A DNA stretch of 64,000 bases from a virus, in IMG/VR virus record IMGVR_UViG_3300007735_000798, positions 32,001-96,000 of that record. One strand, 5' to 3'. The position numbers were made by a program, and so were the translations under genes. Below the pieces are notes generated by a model. The model saw nothing but the letters and a program-made list of their open reading frames with translations. It was not told the origin of the DNA and made no database searches. This document shows positions 18,281 through 64,000 of the stretch, piece after piece. The stretch's first letter is position 1, and the number at the start of each line of letters is the position of its first letter.

Positions 18281-18286
18281 ATCTTA

Positions 18287-21200: not shown

Positions 21201-24200
21201 AATGGGCGGGCATCTTTTTTATATTCTCCAGTGTCAGGATTTACGCCAGTTAATAACCCTAATTTTTTACCCGTTTCTTCGTCTAATTTTTTTAAAATAG
21301 GCAATGCCTCTTCTCCCTTTTTACCCTGTAAAGCCATTCCAATGAATGTATCTCCAAGAAGTTTTATATTTTTTTCAACATCAGCGGTATCTGTTCCCCT
21401 AAATAAATAGTTATCTCGTCTACTAGCTAATTCACTAACCTTCTCGACATTAGCTCTATTTTCCTCTGCGCGTTGTTTTTCTCCTCTTATTTTTGCCATT
21501 TCTGCTTGTTGCGCAGTTTTTCCTTGTTTGCTTACAATTCTTGCCTGATCTTCTGGTGAAAAATCTGCAAGAGCAGCGGCATATTCATCTTGGGCCTGTT
21601 TTACTTTTTGTGGATTTGGAACGGCTTCACTTAAAGCATTTTTTAAATTTTCGCTAGCAGTTGTTAATCTAGCTGAAGCATCATTAAATTTTGTTAATTC
21701 TTGACTAGCTTTTTCATGTGCGGCAATCGCTTCTGGTAATGTATTATTAAGCTCACTAAAATAATCATTCGCAGCCATAACTCCTCCAGCTATAAGCCCA
21801 ATCGCGCCACCCGCAGCAGCCCCATAAGGACCAAAAGCCAGTCCTAATTGAGCACCAGTAGCTCCTAAACTTAGTGCTTGTCCCGCACCAGTAACAGCTG
21901 CCGCCGTTGCTCGTCCTTGCGGACTTGTCTGTGAAATAGTATTTTTAATAGTGGCCGCAAGAATTGGAGCACCAATTGCTATTGCACTTCCATATGCATC
22001 CGCAGCAGCACCAAATTTTTTTACACCTTTGGCTGAATCACCCAATGCTTGAAGATTTTGTCTATATTGATTTGTTGTTCCACTTAATACATAACTAAGT
22101 CCAACTAATTGAATACTTAACGCACCAAGTGCTGAACTAGTACTTGTAGGCTCTTCTGCATAATTTGGTACAAAACCGCGAGAATACATTCCAATACCTT
22201 TTCGCTCGCGCCCAATAGCATCTTTTAATCCATTTGGTTCATCGCGTGTATTTGTCACAGCAATTGGGTTTCCATTTTTATCAAAATGTGCACGAATTTG
22301 AGAAACTGGAACGCCACGATTAGTAGAAGCAAAATTTGGAATAAAACCTTTCGCCATTCCTCTACTTAAAAATGCTGGAATATCTTTTTCAAAAATTCTA
22401 CCAGGACCATTAGCTTGTTTAATTGGCCAAACAATTTGATCTTTACTTAAAGGTAGTCCATAAACAGAGGCACCACCAGTCTCCATATCTGGAAGTAGTT
22501 CTGAACTTTTTAGTTTATCCCTATTATATCTTACTAACCAAGAACTTTGTTTTCTAGCTGAAGCCCAATTTTTTGCACGACCAATATTTTGTTTATAAGC
22601 TTGCCTATCGCTCATTTTTTCCCCTGGTCGGGAAAGAGCATCCCACATGTAAGTTCCAGAGCCACCAAAATATTCCATAGCAGATTGGTCAGAAGATCTA
22701 TTTCGGAAGGCCCATCCTTTACCGAATTTAGATAACATCATTTTTAATTCTTTGTCATCTACGGCTCTTACGAGTGGTGCTGCAAAATTTGGAATAAAAC
22801 CGCGCGCATAAATTGGAAAATCTTCTTCTCTTTTTAGTTGGCCTTTATTTTCTACATATTTTCTAACCATTTGACTATCAAAAGCGATACCCTTGCCACC
22901 ATGAGTTCTAGATAATCTAAATAAAACTCTTTGAATATCAAATTCTTTTCCTGGAAATTTTTTTAATAATAATTGGTAGACTTTATCATCTACAATTCTT
23001 TTTTTAGGGAAGGTAATTTGTCCATAAGCTCCTTTATAACCTTCTTGTTCTTCATCTGGAGAGGCAAATGCTTGGGCAACTTTTTTATTTTTAGAAGTGC
23101 TCATCATTCGCCAATTAACATCAGTCTCAAAATCTTGAGAAACTTGATCAAAAATAGCATCTTTAATCCCAGTAGGTTCAAAATCATCACCAGGAGTACC
23201 TAACATAGTAAAATCTTTATGTCTATAATCGTCTTTTCTACCAGCTCTTAGATTAAAAATACTTTGTTTATTTAATTTTTTAAAATCTTTTCCAGGAACT
23301 GAAACGCCACGATATAATTTTTCTGTTTGTTCTGATCTGCCTAATTTTTTAATTATAGATAAATATTCTCTTAAAATTTGAGCATCAATTGCTTGGGATT
23401 TAAAATTAGGATTAGTATTAATATCTTTACGTCTTAGTGCTAAATCTTTACCAGTAGCTCTTGGTAAATCTTTAAAGTCAATACCACCCAAAAATTTTGG
23501 TGATGCAAAATTTGGAATAAAACCAAAAGCAGCTCCAGGCCTACGAAGAAACTCCATTTCTTTCATTTTTGTGGCTTGAGATTTAAAACCCATTTTTAAC
23601 GCACGTTCTCCACGAGAACTTCTAGCAAATTGAGTAACTTGATCAAAATCGTTTTTTGTCAAACCATTTTCTTCAAATTGTTTTTGAACATATTTCCAAT
23701 CTCCGATTTTTAATGCATCGACATTAAAAGATCTCCCAAGCCAACCTTCACCCAACGCTCTAGATAAAGCTTCAATTTTAGCACGACCCTTTAGTGGGAA
23801 TCCAGGTTGTTTTAGAAAAGCGTCTAAACCAGAAGTATTAACGCCCAATTTTGTTGCGGCTTTTATATAAGCATTATTCGATAAACCACTACCCTCCGAT
23901 AACTTAGTAGATATATTAGGATTAGTTATTCTACTATTTATAATTTCTATTAATTTTGAATTTGCAAAATTTGGAACAAAACCAGCAGCCATACCTTTTG
24001 ATCTACTAATTCTTGCCATTTCTTCTTTAATTGCTTTTTCTAGTTGTGGTCCTCTTCTTAGATTTTGTCCTTGAAGATTTTTTAAAGCTTCTGTTCTTAA
24101 TGCTTGTGATTGCTTATAACCAGCACCACTTTTTACTTGCTTTACTTCTCCAACTTTAGCTTCTTGTAGTAACTTGCTCATTACATCATTAACTAATTCT

Positions 24201-29370: not shown

Positions 29371-30507
29371 TTATACTCCTTGCGGTGTTGGAGGAGGATT
29401 ATAACTGCCAGATAAAAAGATACCTCTATCTGTTTGTTGAGCACTACCAACCTGTACTTCAAATGTCGCACTCATTGTAGCCCCATCACCGATAGCAGAA
29501 CTAAAGTTTTGGCTTGTTAATTTAGCGCCTCTAAATTCATATGTAAGGGCATTGGCTCCAGTTCCGCCACAAGCAGGTTTTTTCATTGTAATTACGAAAT
29601 TATTTAAATTTGTATCACAAAGTAATGACGATAGATCTCCAGTGCCGTTTGATAAGTCGCCAACTTGAGCATTCATAGTTAATGTAGCTGTAAGTGGGAA
29701 ATCAATTTCACGAGAGAATGCGTAGCGACTACCTAATTTTTGAAGTGGTGTACGCCCAATATCAACTGCTAATGAAAAGTCTTGAACTTTTAAATCAACA
29801 GGGTCAAAACCTAATAAACCAGTTGGTGTAAACGTAATATCACCAGGAAGCAATGCATTTGGAATTGAAGATCCAGTCATGGAAGTAGCTGCTGGAAGTT
29901 TAAATTTAACTCCTGTTAATAGTTGACCATCAGCGGCATTAACACCTGGAGCAACTGCCCCACTCCCACCTGGACTTGCGGCATTAAGATCTCCATAAAT
30001 ACGAACATTCAATCCTTCAATTTCAACGTCAGCACTTGGAATATCACCAACAGCAGCATTAACTGTATATGAAGTTAAGAAGCCATTTCCAATACCAATT
30101 ACGCCAGTTCTTGCGCTAGTATAGCCAGCAGCATCATTACCTTCGTCAGCAATCATTAAATAATAATTTTTTTGATCAGTTGCTCTTGTCAAAAGTCCAG
30201 AAATAATAGAAGCATTACCAGCCGAACCAGTCGTCGCACTAGTTAAACCCAAAAGTCTTTCATTAAGACCGTCAGTCAAATAGTATGAAAAACTTGCTGT
30301 TACAGTTGGAGCTTCTACCTCTAAACGATCAATAGCGGCTAAATTTCCAAATTGATTGACATCTTGGAAAGTGCGTGTAAAATCTTCATCGAAACTTTGA
30401 ACACGACCTAATTGTTGAACGGCTCCAAGACCAGTTTGTTGTCCAGTTGGAGAGACTTGACTCGCATAAAGAGCCAATACATTGTAAATTGTTCTATTTC
30501 TTGCCAT
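29371..30507 (-). CDS. Major tail tube protein
   Basis: 378 aa, Gly/Thr/Ala-rich, highly expressed codon style, own terminator; RVQSF..DVNQFG, RTPLQKLGSRYAFSR. Confidence 0.75.
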   Translation of the reverse strand: MARNRTIYNVLALYASQVSPTGQQTGLGAVQQLGRVQSFDEDFTRTFQDVNQFGNLAAIDRLEVEAPTVTASFSYYLTDGLNERLLGLTSATTGSAGNASIISGLLTRATDQKNYYLMIADEGNDAAGYTSARTGVIGIGNGFLTSYTVNAAVGDIPSADVEIEGLNVRIYGDLNAASPGGSGAVAPGVNAADGQLLTGVKFKLPAATSMTGSSIPNALLPGDITFTPTGLLGFDPVDLKVQDFSLAVDIGRTPLQKLGSRYAFSREIDFPLTATLTMNAQVGDLSNGTGDLSSLLCDTNLNNFVITMKKPACGGTGANALTYEFRGAKLTSQNFSSAIGDGATMSATFEVQVGSAQQTDRGIFLSGSYNPPPTPQGV

Positions 30508-30550
30508 AATTATAATTACATCTTATTTTTTTGTTAGACACTCGATATTT

Positions 30551-31411
30551 TTAATATACTCTTGGTTGTCTAATACTTTTTAGTTCAAAATCTGCTATTG
30601 CAGCTATTGTTTTTTTATTTATATATAAATTTTCTGATTCGTCAAATTTTGTAATATCAACTTTATGAATATAAACTAATTGATTTTGATTTTGCATTTT
30701 ACACATATTTATATAATTATAATTATTTCCATCTTTAAAATCTCCAAAATAGTTAAAAGGTAAATCTTCTGGATTAAATACAGGAAATACTTTTCTGGCA
30801 GAATCAGCAAGAATTGATGTTAAACTATCTAAAGAAAAACTATCTTTTGCTAAAATTATACATCTTATCCAATAATTTGATTCATCTAATCCGCCAAAAG
30901 CAAAAGGTTCATTTTCATTTGTTTTTAATTTTATGAATACGCATGGATATGGTAATTCTAAATAACCAAGAGCGCCAGTAACTCTTGATGTTTGCGGAGT
31001 TAATGAATAAGATTTTTCAAACATCAAACGGTCTTCACGTTCATCTGTATAATATAAATTAAATTCTTTAAAACTATATTGCGTAGTAAAATTTTGATTT
31101 GTTGGAATTTGATTTCCAGAAAAAATAATTCTTCCATGATTATAATCAATCGCTAATCCATTCTGACCACGAGAAATAAACTGCGAACCAGAAACTATTC
31201 CACTTGGGATATAAGCATTTGGAATACTAGAATCATAAATCCATTGTTTAAATGGAGATCCATAAACAGATGATGTCAATTGAAAATTAGGATCTTCTGT
31301 TTCATATAGTTTGCCACTATAAGTAATAAAAGCCTCTCCACGACTTAAAATTTCATGATCTAACCACAAATAAAAACTTGATGTAAGATTATTAATATAA
31401 GAAGCTTTCAT
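30551..31411 (-). CDS. Probable tail terminator/neck protein
   Basis: Position upstream of the tail tube; YPCVFI motif. Confidence 0.5.
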   Translation of the reverse strand: MKASYINNLTSSFYLWLDHEILSRGEAFITYSGKLYETEDPNFQLTSSVYGSPFKQWIYDSSIPNAYIPSGIVSGSQFISRGQNGLAIDYNHGRIIFSGNQIPTNQNFTTQYSFKEFNLYYTDEREDRLMFEKSYSLTPQTSRVTGALGYLELPYPCVFIKLKTNENEPFAFGGLDESNYWIRCIILAKDSFSLDSLTSILADSARKVFPVFNPEDLPFNYFGDFKDGNNYNYINMCKMQNQNQLVYIHKVDITKFDESENLYINKKTIAAIADFELKSIRQPRVY

Positions 31412-51753: not shown

Positions 51754-52857
51754 TTATCCATGAACCATTTCATCAATATCAATTCCACGAATGACAGCTT
51801 TTAGTTCATCCATGGAAGAGAGTCGTTTCGCCTCTTCTTCAAGATTTTGTTTTTGTGCTTCCGCCAAATTGATAATACTTTTTCTACGCTCTTCGTCTTT
51901 CCATGCTTGAACAAGATTAAGAATACTAGCATTTTCCTGTTTACGTTCTTGAAGCTTTTTAGAGCGATCATCTACAAGTGATTTATATAATTTATTTTGT
52001 CTTGTTCGACATTGATTATATTCAGTTTGTAAACTACTAATAGCCTCATTAAGGCTCATTTTGATATTACGCCCTTCATCTTCTTCAGAAGCTTGCCGTA
52101 ATAATTGTCTTAAATCTTCAACTTGTTGTAAAATTGTAGAAGCCGTAACCACTTCAGTACAAAGAGTAATAAATTGATCTAGTTCTTCTTGAGTAAGATC
52201 ATCTTTATCATATGTATAACGAATAAATGCATCTTCAAACAATTTACGGTCATCATCACGACGATATGTATTAATTTGATAGCAAAAACTAAAAGTATTC
52301 AAATATCTTTGTAGCATTTCAACTTGTTTAATTTGAACAGCTTTTAATTTTTTATCTTCCCAACCCAAATTAAGATATTTATTTATTCGGAATAAAGTTT
52401 GATCCATTCTTCTTGGCGGAAAGTATTCTCCAATAGGATTATGTTCGGCTTCTTTGGGAACATATGTTGTTGTATCTAAATAAGTTGGATCTTTTTTTTG
52501 TAATTGCTCTACAAATTTATTTACCTCTCGCGCTTCAAGACTTAAATGAGTTAAATTATTATTTTTAAATAATATTTTTGCCATATCAAGATAATGTTGA
52601 TTCTTATAATTATTTTTTATAAATTCTTCATGCTCAGAAGTTAATTTAATACGATCTCTTTGAAATACGGAACGATTTTTATATTCTATATTATTATCTA
52701 ATAAAAATTGTTTTAAAATACGACCCTCTTTACTTCTACTATCAATATTTTCATTATTATAAGTATAAGCAGTAATTTCCGTTAGCGTAGCTTCAGGATT
52801 CTTTTGTAAAAACTCTTTTAATCTTTCTTGCTGTCCTAGTGTAAGAGTTTCTTCCAT
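51754..52857 (-). CDS. Hypothetical helical protein (possible terminase small subunit)
   Basis: 367 aa, N-terminal HTH-like region and C-terminal coiled coil; two genes upstream of terL. Confidence 0.4.
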   Translation of the reverse strand: MEETLTLGQQERLKEFLQKNPEATLTEITAYTYNNENIDSRSKEGRILKQFLLDNNIEYKNRSVFQRDRIKLTSEHEEFIKNNYKNQHYLDMAKILFKNNNLTHLSLEAREVNKFVEQLQKKDPTYLDTTTYVPKEAEHNPIGEYFPPRRMDQTLFRINKYLNLGWEDKKLKAVQIKQVEMLQRYLNTFSFCYQINTYRRDDDRKLFEDAFIRYTYDKDDLTQEELDQFITLCTEVVTASTILQQVEDLRQLLRQASEEDEGRNIKMSLNEAISSLQTEYNQCRTRQNKLYKSLVDDRSKKLQERKQENASILNLVQAWKDEERRKSIINLAEAQKQNLEEEAKRLSSMDELKAVIRGIDIDEMVHG

Positions 52858-53561
52858 TATAATACCTCCTTTACAACCTCTCTTGCTTTTTGTAAAATTT
52901 TAGATTTAATTTTACTAATTTGTCTATAAGCTGGACGACCTTCTTTTAAACTTAATTTATAGCCCATTTTTTTTGCAACATCTGACTCATCTAAATGCTG
53001 TAAAAACATATAATCATAAACTTTCCATTCTATATGAGATAAATTTTTTTTCATCATTTCATGAAATAATGGTATTAATTCTTCTATATTAGATATATGT
53101 TCAGTATCATGTAAAATACTTTCTAAAGTTGTTTCGGGATTATCATAATTTGGGCTATGAATACTTAAAGGAAATTTTACATCATATGCAGATTTTTTAC
53201 TTTTTTCCCATTTTTTATAATCTTTACAACTATTATTTTGGGTACCATATATTGAACATCCATATTCTCCAGTATTAAACGGACATTTTAGACATGGTCT
53301 AGAAAAATTAGAATAATGATTTCTTAACATATTCGTCATTTGGTGGTTTATAACTTGATTTAGCCAGGGCCTTAGTGGTCTTTTTGCATCCCATTTAATC
53401 CATTTTTTATGAATATGAATTCGCAATCTTTGCGCGACATCTTCAAAATCCATCCATGCTATAGCAGTTAAATGCCAACGATGTTTACGTTTTTGAATTT
53501 CAGAATTGATAATTTCAATCGATTCTTCAAAAGTTGGTCTTTCAACTTTTTTTCTTGACAT
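52857..53561 (-). CDS. RNA polymerase sigma factor (sigma70/ECF-like) with Cys4 insert
   Basis: MDFEDVAQ (region 2.2), PLRPWLNQVINHQMTNMLR (2.3-2.4), LSHIEWKVY..ESDVAKKMGY (region 4). Confidence 0.75.
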   Translation of the reverse strand: MSRKKVERPTFEESIEIINSEIQKRKHRWHLTAIAWMDFEDVAQRLRIHIHKKWIKWDAKRPLRPWLNQVINHQMTNMLRNHYSNFSRPCLKCPFNTGEYGCSIYGTQNNSCKDYKKWEKSKKSAYDVKFPLSIHSPNYDNPETTLESILHDTEHISNIEELIPLFHEMMKKNLSHIEWKVYDYMFLQHLDESDVAKKMGYKLSLKEGRPAYRQISKIKSKILQKAREVVKEVL

Positions 53562-58678: not shown

Positions 58679-58699
58679 TTATCATATTACACGCGAATT

Positions 58700-59100
58700 A
58701 TCTAGTTAGGATTAAATTAAAATTATAGGAAAAATACCCTCCACCGATTTTTTTATTTTGATTCTTTTATTATTTATTCATTTACTCTTAAAGTTTTAGA
58801 AATGGGTAGGGGGGTATACATATACAAATACAGAGAAATCTATACATTATTACTAGAATATATATAGAAAGAATATATGAATAAGAGCGATTAAATTTAA
58901 ATTAATTAATATAAATTATTCTCTTTCTATAATATATAGAATAGAATATATTATAATAGAATGGGTTAAAATAAAGATATTAAAATAAATATTCAGGAGA
59001 TTGAAAATGGACCCCTCCCCCACCCTAAAATTAAAACACTCGTTCGTTTTTTTCAAAAAGTGGGGGGGGACTAGGCTTTTTAAACAAAAAAAAGTTCAAA
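58700..59100. other. Non-coding divergence region with G/C homopolymer tracts (candidate genome terminus/pac/origin)
   Basis: No ORF; AT-rich with TACCCTCCACC, GGGTAGGGGGGTATAC, CCCCTCCCCCACCC, GTGGGGGGGG; coincides with the strand and composition switch. Confidence 0.4.
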
Positions 59101-59117
59101 AATCTTAAAAAAATCCC

Positions 59118-59145
59118 TTGCTTTTTGGCGCATCTGTGGTATCTT
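59118..59145 (+). promoter_or_regulatory. Extended -10 sigma70 promoter, leaderless
   Basis: TTGCTT-16nt(..TGG)-TATCTT-6nt-ATG. Confidence 0.85.
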
Positions 59146-59151
59146 GTATAC

Positions 59152-59442
59152 ATGAAAGATAAACAAAACCAATTCACCAAAGGAAGCGTGTATCGCTTCG
59201 ATTACCTGTCTCGCATGGGACGCTTCCACTACCAGAACGTGCGATTCGCTCGCTACGTTGGCCCCTTCAAGTTTGAAGGCAAATACACTTGGAGCGACGA
59301 CTCCATCCCTGCTGGGAACTACTCGTTCGTCAACGAGAACAACGAACCTGTCCAGATCGTTGACTGGATGGTTAACGAAAAGACCGCACAGGTCGAAACC
59401 TTCGGCAAAAACGAAAGGAACTTCCTGCGTCAAGACTGGTAA
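59152..59442 (+). CDS. Early hypothetical protein (96 aa)
   Basis: ATG 6 nt after the -10 box; MKDKQNQF.. Confidence 0.8.
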   Translation: MKDKQNQFTKGSVYRFDYLSRMGRFHYQNVRFARYVGPFKFEGKYTWSDDSIPAGNYSFVNENNEPVQIVDWMVNEKTAQVETFGKNERNFLRQDW

Positions 59443-59451
59443 AAAAATCCC

Positions 59452-59479
59452 TTGACTTTCTCCACATCTCTGATATCCT
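59452..59479 (+). promoter_or_regulatory. Extended -10 sigma70 promoter, leaderless
   Basis: TTGACT-16nt(..TGA)-TATCCT-6nt-ATG. Confidence 0.85.
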
Positions 59480-59485
59480 ACTAAC

Positions 59486-59716
59486 ATGAACACATACGAA
59501 AAACACATCACTCACAACGGAAGCGAATACTATCTCTGCACAGAGTATGCGTTCGATCACACCGACACTCTGCAAGTCTCTGACTTTACGCTGACCGATG
59601 AGGACGGCGAAGAAATCACGCAAGAGGCTTTCGAGGCTGACAAGGCTCTCTATGAGCGTGTCTGCGAAATCCTCGCAAACGAGGACGCTGTCTGCTATGG
59701 CGGCGCGCCTTGCTAA
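59486..59716 (+). CDS. Early acidic hypothetical protein (76 aa)
   Basis: 18 D/E vs 3 K/R; own promoter. Confidence 0.8.
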   Translation: MNTYEKHITHNGSEYYLCTEYAFDHTDTLQVSDFTLTDEDGEEITQEAFEADKALYERVCEILANEDAVCYGGAPC

Positions 59717-59748
59717 TTCAAACACTCGTTTCAAATACTCGTTTCAAT

Positions 59749-59823
59749 ATGCTAACACACGCTGCCGAAATCCTAACAGCCATTCTCATATTCGTCCTAG
59801 GCTTTGCCTTGCTCTGTATATAA
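59749..59823 (+). CDS. 24-aa hydrophobic micro-protein
   Basis: MLTHAAEILTAILIFVLGFALLCI*; its TAA is the first 3 nt of repeat element 1. Confidence 0.45.
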   Translation: MLTHAAEILTAILIFVLGFALLCI

Positions 59824-59895
59824 GCCGTTGATAATCAACAGGTTACGACGGGGCGCCCCGCCGCGCGACGCAAGTCCTTGGTAATCAGCGACTTA
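59821..59895 (+). repeat. 75-bp double-palindrome element 1 (IHF-consensus sites)
   Basis: TAAGCCGTTGATAATCAACAGGTTA / 25-nt GC spacer / CAAGTCCTTGGTAATCAGCGACTTA. Confidence 0.9.
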
Positions 59896-59981
59896 CACAA
59901 ACACACATTCAGAAAGCGTGCCAACTCACAAAACTTTTTTCTATCAACAAAAAAAACTTTCAACAACCGCAAAAAAATCTC

Positions 59982-60009
59982 TTGCTTTTTCCGTGCGCTG
60001 TGCTATTCT
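59982..60009 (+). promoter_or_regulatory. Extended -10 sigma70 promoter, leaderless
   Basis: TTGCTT-16nt(..TGC)-TATTCT-6nt-ATG. Confidence 0.85.
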
Positions 60010-60015
60010 ATATCC

Positions 60016-60234
60016 ATGTTCAAGATCAGATACCAACTCATCCACAATCGTGGCTGCGAAACAGTCACCATCCAAAACCGCTCGGTCAAGCGCGCCATGC
60101 GTATGGCACGCACCCAAGCGTGGGATCAATACGCGCAATCGGGCGCGACTAACTGGGCCGATGTGTGGCTCACCATCACCAACCCCTACGGCAAGGTCGT
60201 CTATGCGGACTTTGCTCCGTCATCAGCGATCTGA
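60016..60234 (+). CDS. Early hypothetical protein (72 aa)
   Basis: MFKIRYQLIH..; own promoter. Confidence 0.8.
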   Translation: MFKIRYQLIHNRGCETVTIQNRSVKRAMRMARTQAWDQYAQSGATNWADVWLTITNPYGKVVYADFAPSSAI

Positions 60235-60242
60235 AAAATCGC

Positions 60243-60270
60243 TTGACTTTTCTCTTTCTTCTGCTATCCT
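60243..60270 (+). promoter_or_regulatory. Extended -10 sigma70 promoter, leaderless
   Basis: TTGACT-16nt(..TGC)-TATCCT-6nt-ATG. Confidence 0.85.
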
Positions 60271-60276
60271 TTAATC

Positions 60277-60651
60277 ATGAACAACGAAAACACCACATTC
60301 AACTTCAACGGAACCATCTGCAAGCTCGTCATCTCGGAGGACTTCGATGGTGACTGCACGAAACTTTGGCACGAACTCGTCAGCGTCGAGACTGGTAAGA
60401 CCATCGCCACCCTCGACTGGTCGCCTTACTCTGTGCCCTCTGATGCGGAGGTCGAGCAACTTATCAGCCTTGGGGAAGTGATCCTCGGAGAATTCCACTT
60501 GCCCTGTGGTTTGCGTTTTGCTAACTCTCACCCGCTCTCACGCTTCAACTTCGACAGCAAGATGCTCGCCGCTTTTTTTGCTGGTGTTTACGGGGAAACT
60601 GTTGGCAAACTTGAACTTGTGTTCAGTGTGCGCCCTACCTTGGCCGCATAA
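60277..60651 (+). CDS. Early hypothetical protein (124 aa)
   Basis: Own promoter. Confidence 0.8.
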   Translation: MNNENTTFNFNGTICKLVISEDFDGDCTKLWHELVSVETGKTIATLDWSPYSVPSDAEVEQLISLGEVILGEFHLPCGLRFANSHPLSRFNFDSKMLAAFFAGVYGETVGKLELVFSVRPTLAA

Positions 60652-60680
60652 AAAAACTTTCACAATCGCAAAAAAAATCC

Positions 60681-60709
60681 TTGCGTTTTCTCTCAACCTG
60701 TTCTATTCT
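60681..60709 (+). promoter_or_regulatory. sigma70 promoter, leaderless
   Basis: TTGCGT-17nt-TATTCT-6nt-ATG. Confidence 0.8.
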
Positions 60710-60715
60710 TTAACC

Positions 60716-60934
60716 ATGAAAGACATCGACACCTACATCACCAACGCCCACTCCGACGATTTCGCCACGGAGGCGGAGGAGCGCGCCACCCTCAACACGT
60801 TCGCGGCAGAGCCTGCCGTCGAGCAGGAACCCGAACCGCAACCCTACGATGGGTACGAGGGCCATTGGGCGGGGGATGGGTCGGGCATGGACGACCTCGC
60901 GGACTGGGGCGAGCAGGAGGGCTGGGACAACTAG
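60716..60934 (+). CDS. Early, very acidic hypothetical protein (72 aa)
   Basis: MKDIDTY..GWDN; 20 D/E vs 2 K/R. Confidence 0.8.
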   Translation: MKDIDTYITNAHSDDFATEAEERATLNTFAAEPAVEQEPEPQPYDGYEGHWAGDGSGMDDLADWGEQEGWDN

Positions 60935-60945
60935 CCCAAACAATT

Positions 60946-60978
60946 CAAACGCCTGTTTCAAACGGGCGTTTGTTTTTT
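60946..60978 (+). terminator. Probable rho-independent terminator
   Basis: CAAACGCCTG-TTTCAAA-CGGGCGTTTG followed by T6. Confidence 0.6.
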
Positions 60979-60997
60979 GCCCAAATTCCAAGTTGCG

Positions 60998-61072
60998 TAA
61001 GTCCTTGATATTCAACCACTTGCATTGGCGCGCGGGGCGTGCGCGCGTAAGTCCTTGATAATGAACGACTTA
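60998..61072 (-). repeat. 75-bp double-palindrome element 2 (inverted orientation)
   Basis: TAAGTCCTTGATATTCAACCACTTG / CATTGGCGCGCGGGGCGTGCGCGCG / TAAGTCCTTGATAATGAACGACTTA. Confidence 0.9.
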
Positions 61073-61163
61073 CGTGATGGCTTGCGAACCCGCATAAATA
61101 CTGGCTTCGCGGGTGTCAAGCTTTTTTTGCAAAAAAAATTTTGCGTAATCGCAAAAAAATCCC

Positions 61164-61191
61164 TTGCTTTTTTGCAGTCCCGTGCTATTCT
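61164..61191 (+). promoter_or_regulatory. Extended -10 sigma70 promoter, leaderless
   Basis: TTGCTT-16nt(..TGC)-TATTCT-6nt-ATG. Confidence 0.85.
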
Positions 61192-61197
61192 TTAAGC

Positions 61198-61383
61198 ATG
61201 AAAAAGAAATACTACACCAAAGCGGAAATCGTGGAATTCGCCACGAAAAACAAAGCCACTTGCACGCACGCATCGTTGGCTTTCAGTTCGTTCATCTTCA
61301 CCAACCGCGTTGGTCGCACTTGCAAGGTTGCGTTTGATCGCGTGGATCATGGCGTTTGGCAGAAAAAAATCTTGAAAAAATAA
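61198..61383 (+). CDS. Early basic protein (61 aa), paralog of 63341..63523
   Basis: MKKKYYT..NKA.CT..V.F.RVD..VW.KKI. Confidence 0.8.
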   Translation: MKKKYYTKAEIVEFATKNKATCTHASLAFSSFIFTNRVGRTCKVAFDRVDHGVWQKKILKK

Positions 61384-61384
61384 C

Positions 61385-61412
61385 TTGACTTTTCCCGCAT
61401 CTCTGGTAGATT
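61385..61412 (+). promoter_or_regulatory. Extended -10 sigma70 promoter, leaderless
   Basis: TTGACT-16nt(..TGG)-TAGATT-6nt-ATG. Confidence 0.85.
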
Positions 61413-61418
61413 GTAAGT

Positions 61419-61592
61419 ATGAAAAACGGATACACTAAAAGCTGGCGCGCTAAAGAGCGCGTCGAAACTCTCGACCTTCCTCTCGCGGAGGACAACGATC
61501 ACCCTGTTTGGGTGAAGCGTCCTAAAGACGCTTTCGAGCGTGAACTGGAGCGGTTGAACCGCGAAGAAAAGCGTAACCGCTGGTCACGCTAA
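61419..61592 (+). CDS. Early hypothetical protein (57 aa, not in ORF track)
   Basis: MKNGYTKSWRAKERVETLDLPLAEDNDHPVWVKRPKDAFERELERLNREEKRNRWSR*. Confidence 0.75.
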   Translation: MKNGYTKSWRAKERVETLDLPLAEDNDHPVWVKRPKDAFERELERLNREEKRNRWSR

Positions 61593-61620
61593 AGCTTGTC
61601 AAGCAAAAAAGTGTTCAGCG

Positions 61621-61695
61621 TAAACCACTGAACATCAAGCGCTTACGACGGCGCGCCCCGCCGCGCGGCGTAACCCGTTGAAAATCAAGCACTTA
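61621..61695 (+). repeat. 75-bp double-palindrome element 3
   Basis: TAAACCACTGAACATCAAGCGCTTA / CGACGGCGCGCCCCGCCGCGCGGCG / TAACCCGTTGAAAATCAAGCACTTA. Confidence 0.9.
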
Positions 61696-61780
61696 TGCAA
61701 AGCGCCGTTCAGAAAGCGTGCCAACTTCAGAAATTTTTTTTCTTCAACAAAAAAACTTTAGAAAATCGAAAAGATTTTCA

Positions 61781-61808
61781 TTGCTTTTTGCGCGTTCTGT
61801 GATATGCT
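61781..61808 (+). promoter_or_regulatory. Extended -10 sigma70 promoter, leaderless
   Basis: TTGCTT-16nt(..TGA)-TATGCT-6nt-ATG. Confidence 0.85.
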
Positions 61809-61814
61809 GTATGT

Positions 61815-62087
61815 ATGAAAAAAGAAATCACCACAATCGAACAAGCAAAGAAACTCTCCGTCTTGGAGTTCATGGATTTGTCCACTCTGGAACGCAAACT
61901 TCTGGATGAACTGAAGCGCGTTGAATCGCAGGTTGAACTGCTCCAGACTTGGCTGGACAACGCTAACCAGTCGTGCGAAACCTTGCGCAAAGCACGCGAC
62001 AACTATCGCAGACAGCTTGGCATCTCGTCCGATTGGGACACGATGGAATCTGTCCGCGACAAATACGATGCCAGACATGGCGGATAA
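61815..62087 (+). CDS. Early coiled-coil protein (90 aa)
   Basis: Own promoter; heptad pattern. Confidence 0.8.
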   Translation: MKKEITTIEQAKKLSVLEFMDLSTLERKLLDELKRVESQVELLQTWLDNANQSCETLRKARDNYRRQLGISSDWDTMESVRDKYDARHGG

Positions 62088-62093
62088 AATCGC

Positions 62094-62121
62094 TTGACTC
62101 TCACCATCTTTCTGCTATTCT
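62094..62121 (+). promoter_or_regulatory. Extended -10 sigma70 promoter, leaderless
   Basis: TTGACT-16nt(..TGC)-TATTCT-6nt-ATG. Confidence 0.85.
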
Positions 62122-62127
62122 AAAGAC

Positions 62128-62376
62128 ATGAAAAACACCATCACCAAACACGAACTTAACGATCACCTTTGCCACGCTCGCGTTGCTCTGGTTCTTCAGA
62201 GCCGCGAACTCTACAAACGCCGCAATGGGTTTTGCGGAAAATCCTTCCGCCAAACTCTGCGCGACAACATCCGCGCCTTGCGCGTGTTGAGCAATCTCAA
62301 CACCATCGAAGCGACTCTCTACTCGTCGTTCGCATCGCCCAAAGTAGGCAAAGCCGAAAAAATTCTCGGCTTGTAA
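62128..62376 (+). CDS. Early hypothetical protein (82 aa)
   Basis: Own promoter. Confidence 0.8.
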   Translation: MKNTITKHELNDHLCHARVALVLQSRELYKRRNGFCGKSFRQTLRDNIRALRVLSNLNTIEATLYSSFASPKVGKAEKILGL

Positions 62377-62382
62377 AATCGC

Positions 62383-62410
62383 TTGACTCTCACCATCTTT
62401 CTGCTATCAT
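62383..62410 (+). promoter_or_regulatory. Extended -10 sigma70 promoter, (near-)leaderless
   Basis: TTGACT-16nt(..TGC)-TATCAT-7nt-ATG; 34 bp identical to the preceding promoter region. Confidence 0.85.
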
Positions 62411-62417
62411 CACTTTT

Positions 62418-62588
62418 ATGAAAAAAGAAAAACTGAACCAACACCTCGTCGAAATCTTCCGCGCGATTGATCGGCTCAATCACGCAATCGGCAACGGGAA
62501 GATGCCGAAACTCGACAAGGGACAAAAAATCGTCCTGCGTTCGGCACTCATCACGCTCGACAACATCGCACTAGAGGGACTGCAATAA
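62418..62588 (+). CDS. Early hypothetical protein (56 aa)
   Basis: MKKEKLNQHL..; own promoter. Confidence 0.75.
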   Translation: MKKEKLNQHLVEIFRAIDRLNHAIGNGKMPKLDKGQKIVLRSALITLDNIALEGLQ

Positions 62589-62818
62589 TGTCACAAAACG
62601 AAAACATCATGAAGTCGCTTCACGCTCTCGCAAAGCATGAGGTTGCCATGCAAGCGCAGGAGGCGGAAATCGTCGAACTGAAAAATCTTTTGTCTCGCGC
62701 CTTGCACACCATCACCATGCACGAGCACAAACTCAATCTTTTGTGTGGCGTTTCTACCACGCTTGCGGTAGAGTTGCACAAAGTTAAAAATAACCAAATC
62801 ACATTCGGAGTAAACTAA
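62588..62818 (+). CDS. Early coiled-coil protein (76 aa)
   Basis: TAATG coupling with the upstream gene; GAGGG SD-like. Confidence 0.75.
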   Translation: MSQNENIMKSLHALAKHEVAMQAQEAEIVELKNLLSRALHTITMHEHKLNLLCGVSTTLAVELHKVKNNQITFGVN

Positions 62819-62819
62819 C

Positions 62820-62984
62820 ATGAAAACACAATTGTTCTCACCCTTGATGCTGGAAAGCGCGGAAGAAAATCTGCGCAAAGAATACGAAAAAAAACTTGGT
62901 CGCTTGCCCCTGTGGTGGTATCCTTGCGCTTTCATTGCTTTTGCAATCCCAATCGTCACTCTAACTCTAATCATATTCACATGA
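62820..62984 (+). CDS. 54-aa protein with C-terminal TM helix (not in ORF track)
   Basis: MKTQLFSP..LWWYPCAFIAFAIPIVTLTLIIFT*; GGAG upstream; ATGA overlap downstream. Confidence 0.7.
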   Translation: MKTQLFSPLMLESAEENLRKEYEKKLGRLPLWWYPCAFIAFAIPIVTLTLIIFT

Positions 62985-63136
62985 GCAAAATCATCATGAC
63001 CATCGACACGCGACCGCTCGCGCGCGCGATTGAGCGCAGTGTTCGCAAGACCACTTGCCGTCCTTCATTCGCCATGCGTGTCAAGAAAAAATTCACGCGC
63101 AAGGCAAAGTTTTTTCGCGGTTGGTCTGACGAGTAA
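62981..63136 (+). CDS. Basic 51-aa protein
   Basis: MSKIIMTIDT..GWSDE*; its stop codon is the first 3 nt of element 4. Confidence 0.7.
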   Translation: MSKIIMTIDTRPLARAIERSVRKTTCRPSFAMRVKKKFTRKAKFFRGWSDE

Positions 63137-63208
63137 AGCGTTGAATATCAACGACTTACGGCGGCGCGCCCCGCCGCGCGACCTAAGTGCTTGAAAATCA
63201 ACGACTTA
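63134..63208 (+). repeat. 75-bp double-palindrome element 4
   Basis: TAAAGCGTTGAATATCAACGACTTA / CGGCGGCGCGCCCCGCCGCGCGACC / TAAGTGCTTGAAAATCAACGACTTA. Confidence 0.9.
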
Positions 63209-63306
63209 CGCAAAGCGCCGTTCAAGAAGTGTGCCAAGTTGCGGAACAAAACGCTCGTTTGAAAAATCATCAACAGAAAAAAGTTACGGAACCGCAAAAA
63301 AATCCC

Positions 63307-63334
63307 TTGCTTTTTCGCAGTCTTGTGGTAGAGT
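63307..63334 (+). promoter_or_regulatory. Extended -10 sigma70 promoter, leaderless
   Basis: TTGCTT-16nt(..TGG)-TAGAGT-6nt-ATG. Confidence 0.85.
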
Positions 63335-63340
63335 GTATAC

Positions 63341-63523
63341 ATGAAAAAGAAATACTACACCACGACAGACATCAATGCCTACGCTCTCCGCAACAAAGCG
63401 GTTTGCACATTCGGAGGTTTGAACCTTCGCGTGTTCAAGGGTTGGACTGCGAAAGGTTCTTACGAGGTGAAATTCCACCGCGTTGACGCTCTCGTGTGGG
63501 AGAAAAAAATCGTAAGAAAATAG
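63341..63523 (+). CDS. Early basic protein (60 aa), paralog of 61198..61383
   Basis: Conserved ends, divergent middle. Confidence 0.8.
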   Translation: MKKKYYTTTDINAYALRNKAVCTFGGLNLRVFKGWTAKGSYEVKFHRVDALVWEKKIVRK

Positions 63524-63524
63524 C

Positions 63525-63552
63525 TTGACTTTTCCCGCATCTCTGATATCTT
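63525..63552 (+). promoter_or_regulatory. Extended -10 sigma70 promoter, leaderless
   Basis: TTGACT-16nt(..TGA)-TATCTT-6nt-ATG. Confidence 0.85.
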
Positions 63553-63558
63553 AAAAGC

Positions 63559-63774
63559 ATGAAAAATAAAAACACCACTCCTCAACCGAAAGTCGGACAA
63601 CTCTGGAGAGTCGCCACTGGCGAACGCAAAGGCGGTTACACTCTCGTCCGCGTCACCGAAATCATCGGCACTCTGGCTTGTGTTCGCACTCACGAAAACA
63701 AACGCGGCCACATCCTGCTGGACTACCTACATCCCGCCTCGAAAGAGGACATTCAAAACTATCTGAAAAAATAG
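63559..63774 (+). CDS. Early SH3-like small beta protein (71 aa)
   Basis: PKVGQLWR..VRVTEI. Confidence 0.75.
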   Translation: MKNKNTTPQPKVGQLWRVATGERKGGYTLVRVTEIIGTLACVRTHENKRGHILLDYLHPASKEDIQNYLKK

Positions 63775-63775
63775 T

Positions 63776-63803
63776 TTGACTCTCTCCACATCTCTGATAC
63801 TCT
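63776..63803 (+). promoter_or_regulatory. Extended -10 sigma70 promoter, leaderless
   Basis: TTGACT-16nt(..TGA)-TACTCT-6nt-ATG. Confidence 0.85.
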
Positions 63804-63809
63804 AAAAGC

Positions 63810-64000
63810 ATGACAACCTACAACGAACAAAAGTGCTACACGGCAAAGGTGAAAAACCATCTCACGAACAAAACGAAATTTTTCGATGTGTTCGCGCCGT
63901 CGATCAGCAAGGCAATCCTGCTCGCTGAAGAACTCGGCTCCTTGTTCTTCTGCACGGCAAGCGTCGAGTGCATCGCCTGTGGCCTCAATCGCTTGGGCAA
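63810..64000 (+). CDS. Early hypothetical protein, 3'-truncated
   Basis: MTTYNEQKCYTAKVKNHL.. open to the window end. Confidence 0.75.
   Translation, partial: MTTYNEQKCYTAKVKNHLTNKTKFFDVFAPSISKAILLAEELGSLFFCTASVECIACGLNRLG

Follow-up and report, generated by a model that had tools for sequence, protein, structure and literature searches.

Promoter-ATG fusions and candidate leaderless cassettes in the right arm of an uncultured tailed phage

The right arm and its promoter array

The source phage is an uncultured, tailed phage whose contig (104.7 kb; CheckV completeness 69%) encodes, among other proteins, a 2964-aa multi-domain tape measure protein, a DNA polymerase III alpha subunit and terminase. 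Near the end of the window, by which we mean the whole 64-kb stretch of DNA that was analysed, a divergent boundary containing a C-run/G-run inverted repeat marks the start of a right arm of approximately 13.7 kb, in which about 24 of about 35 genes have a promoter fused to their ATG at a fixed geometry. The part of the arm that lies in the window, 59118-64000, is its first 4.9 kb. The original prediction described an array of single-gene cassettes limited to this span. The promoter sites are indeed there, but the array is not confined to the span: it reaches genome position ~104,341, ~8.3 kb past the window end, making it more than twice as long as first described. Likewise, the single-gene description fits the promoter-fused genes, but some arm genes are translationally coupled followers that have a Shine-Dalgarno (SD) sequence. 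The features of the window are as follows, with one sigma-like gene outside the array listed first.

52857..53561, minus strand: sigma-like gene, 234 aa, with a Sigma70 region 2 match
58679..59106, no strand: AT-rich divergent boundary between leftward structural genes (~29% GC) and the rightward early arm (~47% GC)
59107..59442, plus strand: cassette 1; A-tract, TTGCTT (59118), 16 nt with TGg, TATCTT, 6 nt, ATG at 59152; 96 aa
59441..59716, plus strand: cassette 2; TTGACT (59452), 16 nt with TGa, TATCCT, 6 nt, ATG at 59486; 76 aa
59829..59897, no strand: palindromic GC-core element, 77-bp type (family D3), copy 1
59971..60234, plus strand: cassette 3; TTGCTT (59982), 16 nt with TGc, TATTCT, 6 nt, ATG at 60016; 72 aa
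60232..60651, plus strand: cassette 4; TTGACT (60243), 16 nt with TGc, TATCCT, 6 nt, ATG at 60277; 124 aa
60670..60934, plus strand: cassette 5; TTGCGT (60681), 17-nt spacer without TG, TATTCT, 6 nt, ATG at 60716; 72 aa, very acidic
60946..60982, plus strand: intrinsic terminator, 12-bp stem then T-run; the only canonical one in the window part of the arm
61006..61074, no strand: palindromic GC-core element, copy 2
61153..61383, plus strand: cassette 6; TTGCTT (61164), 16 nt with TGc, TATTCT, 6 nt, ATG at 61198; 61 aa
61374..61592, plus strand: cassette 7; TTGACT (61385), 16 nt with TGg, TAGATT, 6 nt, ATG at 61419; 57 aa
61629..61697, no strand: palindromic GC-core element, copy 3
61770..62087, plus strand: cassette 8; TTGCTT (61781), 16 nt with TGa, TATGCT, 6 nt, ATG at 61815; 90 aa
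62083..62376, plus strand: cassette 9; TTGACT (62094), 16 nt with TGc, TATTCT, 6 nt, ATG at 62128; 82 aa
62372..62588, plus strand: cassette 10; TTGACT (62383), 16 nt with TGc, TATCAT, 7 nt, ATG at 62418; 56 aa
62588..63136, plus strand: three promoterless genes (76, 54 and 51 aa), each linked to the gene before it through overlapping stop and start codons or a gap of 1 nt (TAATG, TAAcATG, ATGA)
63142..63210, no strand: palindromic GC-core element, copy 4
63296..63523, plus strand: cassette 11; TTGCTT (63307), 16 nt with TGg, TAGAGT, 6 nt, ATG at 63341; 60 aa
63514..63774, plus strand: cassette 12; TTGACT (63525), 16 nt with TGa, TATCTT, 6 nt, ATG at 63559; 71 aa
63765..64000, plus strand: cassette 13; TTGACT (63776), 16 nt with TGa, TACTCT, 6 nt, ATG at 63810; 84 aa, the ORF extending 64 nt beyond the window end

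Several cassettes are related to one another or to genes elsewhere. The ORFs of cassettes 6 and 11 are paralogues, cassette 7 has a paralogue at genome position 96490 behind the other promoter class, and the promoters of cassettes 9 and 10 are identical over 34 nt, from the upstream A-tract to the TAT of the -10 box (family D9). Homologues of cassette 1 were found in three loci (L011, L014 and L023) and those of cassette 2, whose A-tract overlaps the preceding stop codon, in 12 loci; the family alignment of cassette 4 (A3) has a mean column identity of 72%. The promoterless trio is conserved in 17 loci, and two of the three genes have GAGG or GGAG 9-10 nt upstream. No recognised family was matched by the cassette proteins, and an AlphaFold model of one cassette protein family had a pLDDT of 54, making it unusable.

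The palindromic element, present in four copies in the window and 11 in the arm, folds as a single long hairpin (-27 to -32 kcal/mol) 60-100 nt before some TTGCTT/TTGCAT-type promoters. It precedes only about half of the promoters, those of the TTGACT type having no stem-loop, and is probably a unit boundary or terminator. The two promoter types also differ in their position relative to the upstream gene. The expectation that each promoter begins at or just after the previous stop codon was borne out for the seven TTGACT-type sites (stop-to-ATG gap 35-43 nt), but not for the TTGCTT/TTGCGT-type sites, which lie 64-263 nt downstream of the preceding stop and mostly follow a 77-bp element or the terminator.

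Promoter geometry and predicted start sites

Each of the 13 predicted -35 boxes is present at its predicted coordinate on the plus strand, and at all 13 sites a TTGACA-like -35 box and a TAnnnT -10 box are 16-18 nt apart. As predicted, a 16-nt spacer with TG at -15/-14 is found at 12 of the sites, the exception being 60681 (17-nt spacer, no TG), and the distance from TAnnnT to ATG is 6 nt at 12, the exception being 62383 (7 nt). The strict pattern TTGNNT-N13-TGN-TANNNT-N6-ATG has 11 matches in the 64-kb window, all on the plus strand within 59118-63812; in 100 dinucleotide-preserving shuffles the expectation was 0.06 (maximum 1). The motif is confined to the arm, with only scattered weak look-alikes elsewhere in the genome. 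The full element set consists of an A-tract, a -35 box TTG(A/C)nT, a 16-nt spacer, TGn and a -10 box TAnnnT; the A-tract is a proximal, UP-like one at about -46 to -40, with the consensus AAAAAAT before the -35 box. Among 145 distinct instances from the clade, TG at -15/-14 occurs in 134, even though the search did not require it, and the spacer has the consensus tTt..c..a.cTgTG. These observations support the view that the 13 sites are complete sigma70-type promoters; the host's primary sigma factor may or may not read this consensus, and its ribosomes may or may not translate leaderless mRNA well.

RNA polymerase with sigma70 starts ~7 nt downstream of the -10 box, such that the geometry of these promoters predicts that +1 is the A of the start codon. 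A pyrimidine occupies position -1 at all 13 window sites (C at 10, T at three) and in 139 of the 145 clade instances. The discriminator in those instances is constant in length (6 nt) and highly variable in sequence. When extended -10 sites were sought in relatives with no requirement for an ATG, 170 distinct sites were found, ~119 with an ATG at 6 nt and eight with one at 7 nt. The clade-wide constraint appears, from these comparisons, to act on geometry rather than sequence.

The absence of an SD from the 13 sites was also confirmed: AGGA, GGAG and GAGG are missing from the 17 nt upstream of each ATG, and no SD tetramer was found in any of the ~24 promoter-fused genes of the arm. ATG is the start codon of every one of these genes, although the search also permitted GTG and TTG. 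Most of the promoterless genes in the arm directly adjoin or overlap the stop codon before them, and several have GGAG; for five promoterless genes at -4 to +3 nt from the previous stop, GGAG or GAGG is present in four. SD use in the arm thus appears to track need, with promoter-fused genes lacking an SD and coupled promoterless genes mostly having one. Codon 2 is AAA at nine of the 13 window sites and in 60 of the 145 clade instances, giving an A-rich, unstructured 5' end. The mRNA of each promoter-fused gene probably starts at its own ATG, without a ribosome-binding site.

We also considered that the repeats might serve mainly as recombination linkers, or as RNA-level signals in one or a few long polycistronic transcripts, with internal initiation that is independent of an SD. 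Intrinsic terminators between cassettes are scarce, such that read-through polycistronic RNA must exist as well; the body genes of the phage mostly lack an SD too, so the host may be able to initiate without one; and at genome position 97765 a promoter copy is followed by ATG-AGA-TAA and then ~200 nt with no ORF, indicating that an ATG can move with the repeat without starting a gene. However, a linker needs no -35 box, TG, -10 box, fixed 6-nt discriminator of variable sequence or pyrimidine-purine start, and the genes without the motif are exactly those that are stop/start coupled or have GGAG. We therefore regard this explanation as unlikely.

Conservation, cassette shuffling and composition

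In five whole related records, all 28 motif matches lie on one strand and in one region, and a reversed-pattern control gave none. In line with the proposal that cassettes are exchangeable, block order and content differ among relatives: promoters form conserved islands between diverged or unrelated genes, are better conserved than the intervening genes, and in one case two different promoter classes precede members of the same gene family.

The arm also differs from the rest of the genome in composition. Its GC content is ~47%, compared with ~29% for the rest of the 104.7-kb contig, and the GC3 of arm genes is 0.61, compared with 0.14 for body genes. The sudden jump, at window position ~59,000, and the complete change in codon usage at the junction are what would be expected if the GC-rich arm were an assembly chimera or a recent foreign insertion, with the array belonging to another genome. 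We consider this very improbable, since the rise in GC at the first promoter recurs, together with the promoters themselves, in more than 10 related IMG/VR contigs, and the junction, flanked on either side by homologous genes, is present in many independent metagenome contigs. Moreover, the codon split is found throughout the clade (GC3 of 0.55-0.70 in arm genes, with C-ending codons, and 0.14-0.36 in the rest of the genome). Together with the early proteins being only 55-95% identical among relatives, this indicates that the arrangement is old.

Transcription of the arm and comparison with known systems

No match to PF00940, PF00562 or PF00623 was found in the phage record or three relatives (one of them 100% complete by CheckV), although very divergent phage RNA polymerases could escape these Pfam models, and the motifs DFDxD/DxDGD were absent from the large ORFs except for one chance match in terminase. 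By contrast, there are two Sigma70_r2 matches per genome. One is the 234-aa gene listed above, which supports a dependence on host core RNA polymerase. The other, a 188-aa gene, is preceded by A-tract-TTGACA-17(TGa)-TAATTT-7-ATG, which outside the arm is the only clean promoter of the host type. A phage with sigma-like genes and without a recognisable RNA polymerase gene makes it credible that the early promoters are read by the host sigma factor.

Alternatively, the motifs could be promoters for a phage-specified enzyme, with their likeness to sigma70 promoters partly coincidental; this could be host core polymerase carrying a phage sigma factor, or else a phage RNA polymerase that is either delivered with the virion or very divergent, as for the early promoters of phages of the N4, crAss-like and P23-45 types, which encode or package their own polymerase. 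The spacer is conserved beyond what sigma70 requires, the two sigma-like genes could supply such a factor, and a long tape measure protein is encoded; in Thermus phage P23-45, the virion RNA polymerase is fused to the tape measure (bioRxiv 10.1101/2022.12.01.518664). Nonetheless, the sites have all four of the elements that a primary-sigma holoenzyme reads, each at its canonical distance; neither the record nor the complete relative yielded an RNA polymerase family or catalytic motif; and the only domain match of the tape measure protein is to a minor tail protein. A phage sigma factor, moreover, must itself first be made from a host-read promoter, and a sigma-like gene carries a promoter of that type. 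We consider a phage-specified enzyme improbable.

We think it reasonably likely, on the basis of these sequence features, that host primary-sigma RNA polymerase transcribes the early arm into leaderless mRNAs from shuffling promoter cassettes that lack an SD and resemble the promoter-early stem-loops (PeSLs) of T4-type phages. The polymerase would begin the transcript of a promoter-fused gene on the A of the start codon, just after a pyrimidine, and each such gene would yield a leaderless mRNA whose 5'-terminal AUG is the sole translation signal; nearly every arm gene would need its own promoter for this reason. Promoterless genes would ride on the preceding gene through stop/start coupling, often with GGAG, and cassette units would be delimited by the long palindromic hairpins or a terminator. 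The conserved promoters would act as portable homology, allowing cassettes to be gained, lost, duplicated and reordered among relatives, and later gene classes would probably be transcribed by host core polymerase with the two phage sigma-like factors. We infer the start site, leaderless translation, early timing and host-takeover role from the sequence; an immediate-early role in host takeover is suggested only by where the genes lie, the direction in which they run, their size and the fact that they belong to no known families.

A more tentative idea, which we raise as a possibility, is that this AT-rich aquatic phage clade keeps a separate "early expression dialect", in which one arm has a promoter that doubles as the translation start signal, one leaderless unit per gene, no SD and GC3-rich codons. 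If selected, such a dialect could allow instant translation with the unmodified tRNA pool and ribosomes of the host, could spare arm genes from AT-directed silencing, or could maintain their expression during a phage-imposed shutdown of SD-led translation in the host. Under any of these purposes it would, if true, represent a design principle of immediate-early phage genes that is both new and general.

Clusters of early promoters and small genes are known from other phages, such as the host-takeover module of SPO1 (PMC6873191). Like that module and the early promoter-ORF clusters of T4, the arm has ~25 small genes, mostly of unknown function, at one genome end, and many strong host-sigma early promoters that would be followed by a phage sigma factor cascade. 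The genes of those clusters have strong SD sites and leaders, and we know of no report of a compositional split in them.

In Deinococcus-Thermus, experiments have shown that leaderless genes are driven by a TANNNT -10 element lying a short, constant distance from the ORF, and a properly spaced -35 box boosts their transcription (PMC12340547). The array resembles this architecture, which is also common in Actinobacteria, in the short, constant spacing between TANNNT and the start codon and in the lack of a ribosome-binding site. Middle and late transcripts of Thermus phage phiYS40 are also reportedly leaderless, according to work by Sevostyanova et al. in 2007. However, leaderless expression in Deinococcus-Thermus is a habit of the whole host genome, and that of phiYS40 concerns middle and late genes, whereas the array is restricted to a single arm of a phage and consists of densely packed early cassettes whose UP, -35 and TG elements are complete.

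The closest parallel is with PeSLs, regulatory cassettes in the hyperplastic regions of the T4-type phages RB49/phi1, PST and nt-1 (PMC2839356, PMC4122927). In both, strong early promoters of the sigma70-like kind recur, with an AT-rich tract before the -35 box, and begin at the stop codon of the preceding gene (in the array, those of the TTGACT type). Stem-loops accompany PeSLs and may play a similar part near some promoters of the array. In both, small genes without known homologues lie downstream, and the region is the most variable of the genome, serving as a set of exchange points at which relatives differ by gain, loss and reordering of cassettes. The array differs in that a PeSL ends with an SD and start codon, whereas the array has no SD and a fixed ATG 6 nt after the -10 box; in that its stem-loop is a separate 77-bp element found before only about half of the promoters; in that the arm has its own codon usage; and in that the phage is not T4-like, having a long tape measure protein and a DNA polymerase III alpha subunit. 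Judged by its sequence, we regard the array as an unusually systematic version of a known phage cassette design.

Geometry of the promoter-start codon fusions

Reading the window from 58800 to 64000 and scanning it with a regular expression confirmed every promoter coordinate of the original prediction: 13 sites on the plus strand consist of TTG(A/C)nT, a spacer, TAnnnT and an ATG. The predicted geometry was borne out as well, with a spacer of 16 nt in 12 of the 13 sites (17 nt in one), an extended -10 (TG at -15/-14) in 12, a distance from -10 box to ATG of 6 nt in 12 and 7 nt in one, and no Shine-Dalgarno (SD)-like tetramer at any of the 13. A strict promoter-ATG pattern matched 11 times in the window, always within 59118-63812, as against 0.06 matches expected from dinucleotide-preserving shuffles. 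Every site is preceded by an A-tract (AAAAAATCnC) at the place expected for a proximal UP subsite, and has a pyrimidine at -1; +1 would be the A of the ATG.

The array had been placed at 59118-64000. The sites are there, and the array also continues beyond the window to genome position ~104,341 (whole-record coordinate) of a single 104,736-bp virus record that CheckV rates as 69% complete and of which the window covers bases 32,001-96,000. Across this GC-rich arm, ~24 of the ~35 genes have their ATG fused to a promoter. Five promoterless arm genes lie against the previous stop codon or overlap it (-4 to +3 nt), four of them with GGAG or GAGG, and the truncated gene at the very end of the contig carries a complete AGGAGG. 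Thus, SD motifs are used in the arm, only not by the promoter-fused genes, which need none.

The same geometry recurs in related phages. Among 170 distinct extended -10 sites gathered from relatives without requiring an ATG, an ATG lies exactly 6 nt downstream in ~119 and 7 nt downstream in eight. We also collected 145 full-geometry instances; since the loci were found with a pattern containing the ATG, one instance per locus is present by construction and the others are independent. TG is found in 134 of the 145, a pyrimidine at -1 in 139, and AAA as the second codon in 60. The discriminator is constant in length and very variable in sequence, its commonest hexamer occurring 12 times. Sigma70 polymerase starts ~7 nt after the -10 hexamer. 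If transcription always began at the A of the ATG, one would expect just such a discriminator, constrained in length but not in sequence, together with a pyrimidine-purine step at the start. From these sequence patterns, we infer that transcription starts at that A.

Promoter classes, hairpin elements and cassette contents

The promoters fall into two classes, and only one of them, about half of the sites, begins at the previous stop codon as had been proposed for all. TTGACT-type promoters follow the stop directly, with 35-43 nt from stop to ATG and an A-tract that overlaps the stop codon. The unit-opening class (TTGCTT, TTGCAT or TTGCGT) does not; its members mostly lie behind a second, phased A-tract, and several also lie behind a 77-bp palindromic element with a GC-rich core that, as RNA, is predicted to fold into one long hairpin (-27 to -32 kcal/mol). 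Copies of this element are 69-77 bp long, with two AT-rich palindromic arms around the core; several of the 11 copies have a unit-opening promoter 60-100 nt downstream.

Copies of the palindromic element
Window 59829-59897
Window 61006-61074
Window 61629-61697
Window 63142-63210
Seven more copies in L001 (the locus whose position 7765 is genome position 97765)

The cassettes, each a promoter with a small ORF, behave as exchangeable units among relatives. The paralogous units at 61164 and 63307 are ~90% identical across both promoters and ~55-60% identical across the gene between them; homology stops just past the next ATG and unrelated genes follow. One gene family is found behind a TTGACT-type promoter (61385) and behind a TTGCTT-type promoter (genome position 96456). 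The comparison of cassette order called for by the original prediction, made here across 21 related loci, showed the blocks g19-g21-g22, g4-g5 and g11-g13 (gene numbers of that comparison) in differing orders. The position of g24 varies as well, and many of this genome's cassettes are missing elsewhere; the order of the distal arm, g26-g36, is kept.

Searches of the cassette proteins against PHROGs and Pfam identified only a GP88-family protein and, weakly, an HhH glycosylase-like one, both further along the arm, and the AlphaFold2 model of a 124-aa family has a pLDDT of 54. Very acidic small proteins with a DDF.T...SDE(F/Y)A(T/S)E motif (window 60716-60934; L001:10520-10654) form one family with members in most relatives, and their composition recalls that of DNA-mimic anti-restriction proteins. 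Two mini-ORFs between cassettes (window 59749-59823; L001:10093-10161) would encode hydrophobic peptides of 24 and 22 aa. At L001:7765-7992 (genome positions 97765-97992), a complete copy of the promoter leads only into ATG-AGA-TAA and ~200 nt with no ORF; this ORF-less stretch has no Rfam match and no notable fold (z-score -0.6), and the unit may be a decayed cassette or a small RNA. Rfam finds only tRNA on the arm: tRNA-Trp(CCA) and tRNA-Lys(UUU) lie at L001:11979-12161 (genome positions 101979-102161). Only 7 nt separate a promoter-like TTGATT-16-TAGATT from the mature 5' end of tRNA-Trp downstream of it, so the tRNA transcript may also have almost no leader.

Composition, relatives and transcription genes of the phage

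GC content is ~29% up to window position ~59,000 (genome position ~91,000) and ~47% beyond, and the difference between the arm and the body of the contig is almost wholly synonymous.

GC content by codon position
GC1: arm 0.52, body 0.42
GC2: arm 0.38, body 0.37
GC3: arm 0.61, body 0.14

C occupies the third position of 0.38 of codons in early-arm genes. The arm prefers the C-ending codon in every two-fold pyrimidine-ending family (ATC 0.79, AAC 0.72, TTC 0.72), with A-ending codons still preferred for Lys, Gln and Glu; the body uses T-ending codons at 0.86-0.93. The codon differences known between early and late genes of T4 are much smaller. The split could come from a use of the host's optimal codons, which would permit immediate translation, from a need to avoid silencing of AT-rich DNA or chance -10 sites, or from biased gene conversion at a recombination hot spot. 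It offers a tangible way to study what constrains the first minutes of infection.

Scanning IMG/VR with the promoter pattern gave 43 loci, more than 10 of which have a low-to-high GC jump exactly at the start of the promoters. Related loci have genes in common on both sides of the jump: structural genes of low GC, with terminase up to 89% identical, and small genes of high GC that are 55-95% identical. Early genes of these loci have a GC3 of 0.49-0.70, or 0.54-0.70 if a single locus is set aside, and late genes one of 0.16-0.36, and the split between NNC in the arm and NNT in the body is found in at least 12 related contigs. This shared jump, the homologues on both sides of it and the common GC3 split rule out a chimeric assembly. 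The strict pattern has 28 matches in five whole related records (107-170 kb), all of them confined to one region and one strand; a reversed control pattern gave 0 matches in the same five records.

The body is that of a tailed phage transcribed mostly leftward, with genes for large terminase, virion proteins, PhoH, DNA polymerase III alpha, a DnaB-type helicase, class II ribonucleotide reductase, a RecA-like protein and sugar-modifying enzymes. It also encodes a tape measure protein of 2964 aa (window 18287-27181, minus strand), of which only residues ~10-530 resemble tape-measure families; searches of Pfam and PHROGs gave no match for the other ~2400 aa. A crAss-like identity, guessed from size and GC, is ruled out because this giant ORF encodes a tape measure protein rather than an RNA polymerase. 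Terminal repeats were found neither in this contig nor between the end loci of four relatives. A blastn search of the GenBank phage collection gave no close relatives, only a distant virion protein that this phage shares with cyanomyoviruses. None of 185,579 species genomes holds a relative of the terminase, and a motif scan of the same genomes found no more than two tiny related contigs, one in the bin of an Alphaproteobacteria MAG and one in that of a Verrucomicrobia MAG, although bin membership of this kind is unreliable.

Neither single-subunit nor multisubunit RNA polymerase families have a match in this record or in three relatives (one rated 100% complete), and no large ORF has a DFDxD or DxDGD motif except for a chance match in terminase. 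Each genome has two matches to Sigma70 region 2, in ORFs conserved in relatives. Both score near or below the Pfam cut-off, so they are sigma-like as far as assignment goes.

Sigma-like ORFs
Window 52857-53561, minus strand: 234 aa, Sigma70 region 2 match
Genome 29990-30556 (positions 17990-18556 of locus L046), minus strand: 188 aa, Sigma70 region 2 match and weak region 4 match

The only clean host-type promoter outside the arm precedes the 188-aa gene (A-tract-TTGACA-17(TGa)-TAATTT-7-ATG). Judged by sequence, this would be what a cascade needs, with host sigma acting first and phage sigma second; SPO1 has a cascade of the same kind. A GTGTAA(A/T) sequence, which frequently follows a T-run, is found 9-39 nt upstream of at least 12 structural or late genes and may serve a phage sigma factor as a late promoter element.

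GTGTAA(A/T) sites, mostly on the minus strand
Window 27216
Window 37009
Window 48903
Window 54028
Window 54074 (plus strand)
Window 55428
Window 56979
Window 58692
Others

Proposed mechanism and comparison with known systems

We propose that host primary-sigma holoenzyme binds the UP-like tract, -35, TG and -10 elements and starts at the A of the ATG, and that ribosomes then bind the 5'-terminal AUG directly, which is a known leaderless route. A downstream cistron on a read-through RNA would have no SD, such that every gene would depend on a promoter of its own or on being tightly coupled to its upstream neighbour. Units would be bounded by the hairpin elements and a single intrinsic terminator (60946-60982). 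The position, orientation and size of the arm genes, and their lack of known families, make early timing and a role in host takeover plausible.

If the start sites are confirmed, the arrays would be a natural expression system of very few parts, in which a ~45-bp unit would be enough to initiate both transcription and translation of any ORF set 6 nt downstream. This would account for the need of these phages for a separate promoter at each gene, show how early genes can pass freely from one phage to another, and provide a possible route to early proteins that does not depend on SD recognition. The arrays also yield exact start-site predictions for metatranscriptomes of uncultured phages; in the window, the predicted starts are the ATGs at 59152, 59486, 60016, 60277, 60716, 61198, 61419, 61815, 62128, 62418, 63341, 63559 and 63810.

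Our literature search found no description of phages with a GC3-rich early arm or with leaderless arrays of early cassettes on this systematic scale. Experiments in Deinococcus-Thermus have validated the leaderless mode for genes whose ORF lies next to a -10 motif (PMC12340547). Among phage systems, the arm resembles the promoter-early stem-loops (PeSLs) of T4-type phages. In a PeSL, an early promoter of sigma70-like type with an AT-rich tract upstream is combined with a stem-loop, an SD and a start codon; PeSLs occupy hyperplastic regions, where they precede genes without known homologues and act as exchange points (PMC2839356; PMC4122927). The exchange behaviour of the arm cassettes matches that published for PeSLs; the defining difference is that the arm cassettes dispense with the SD and have their ATG fused to the promoter.
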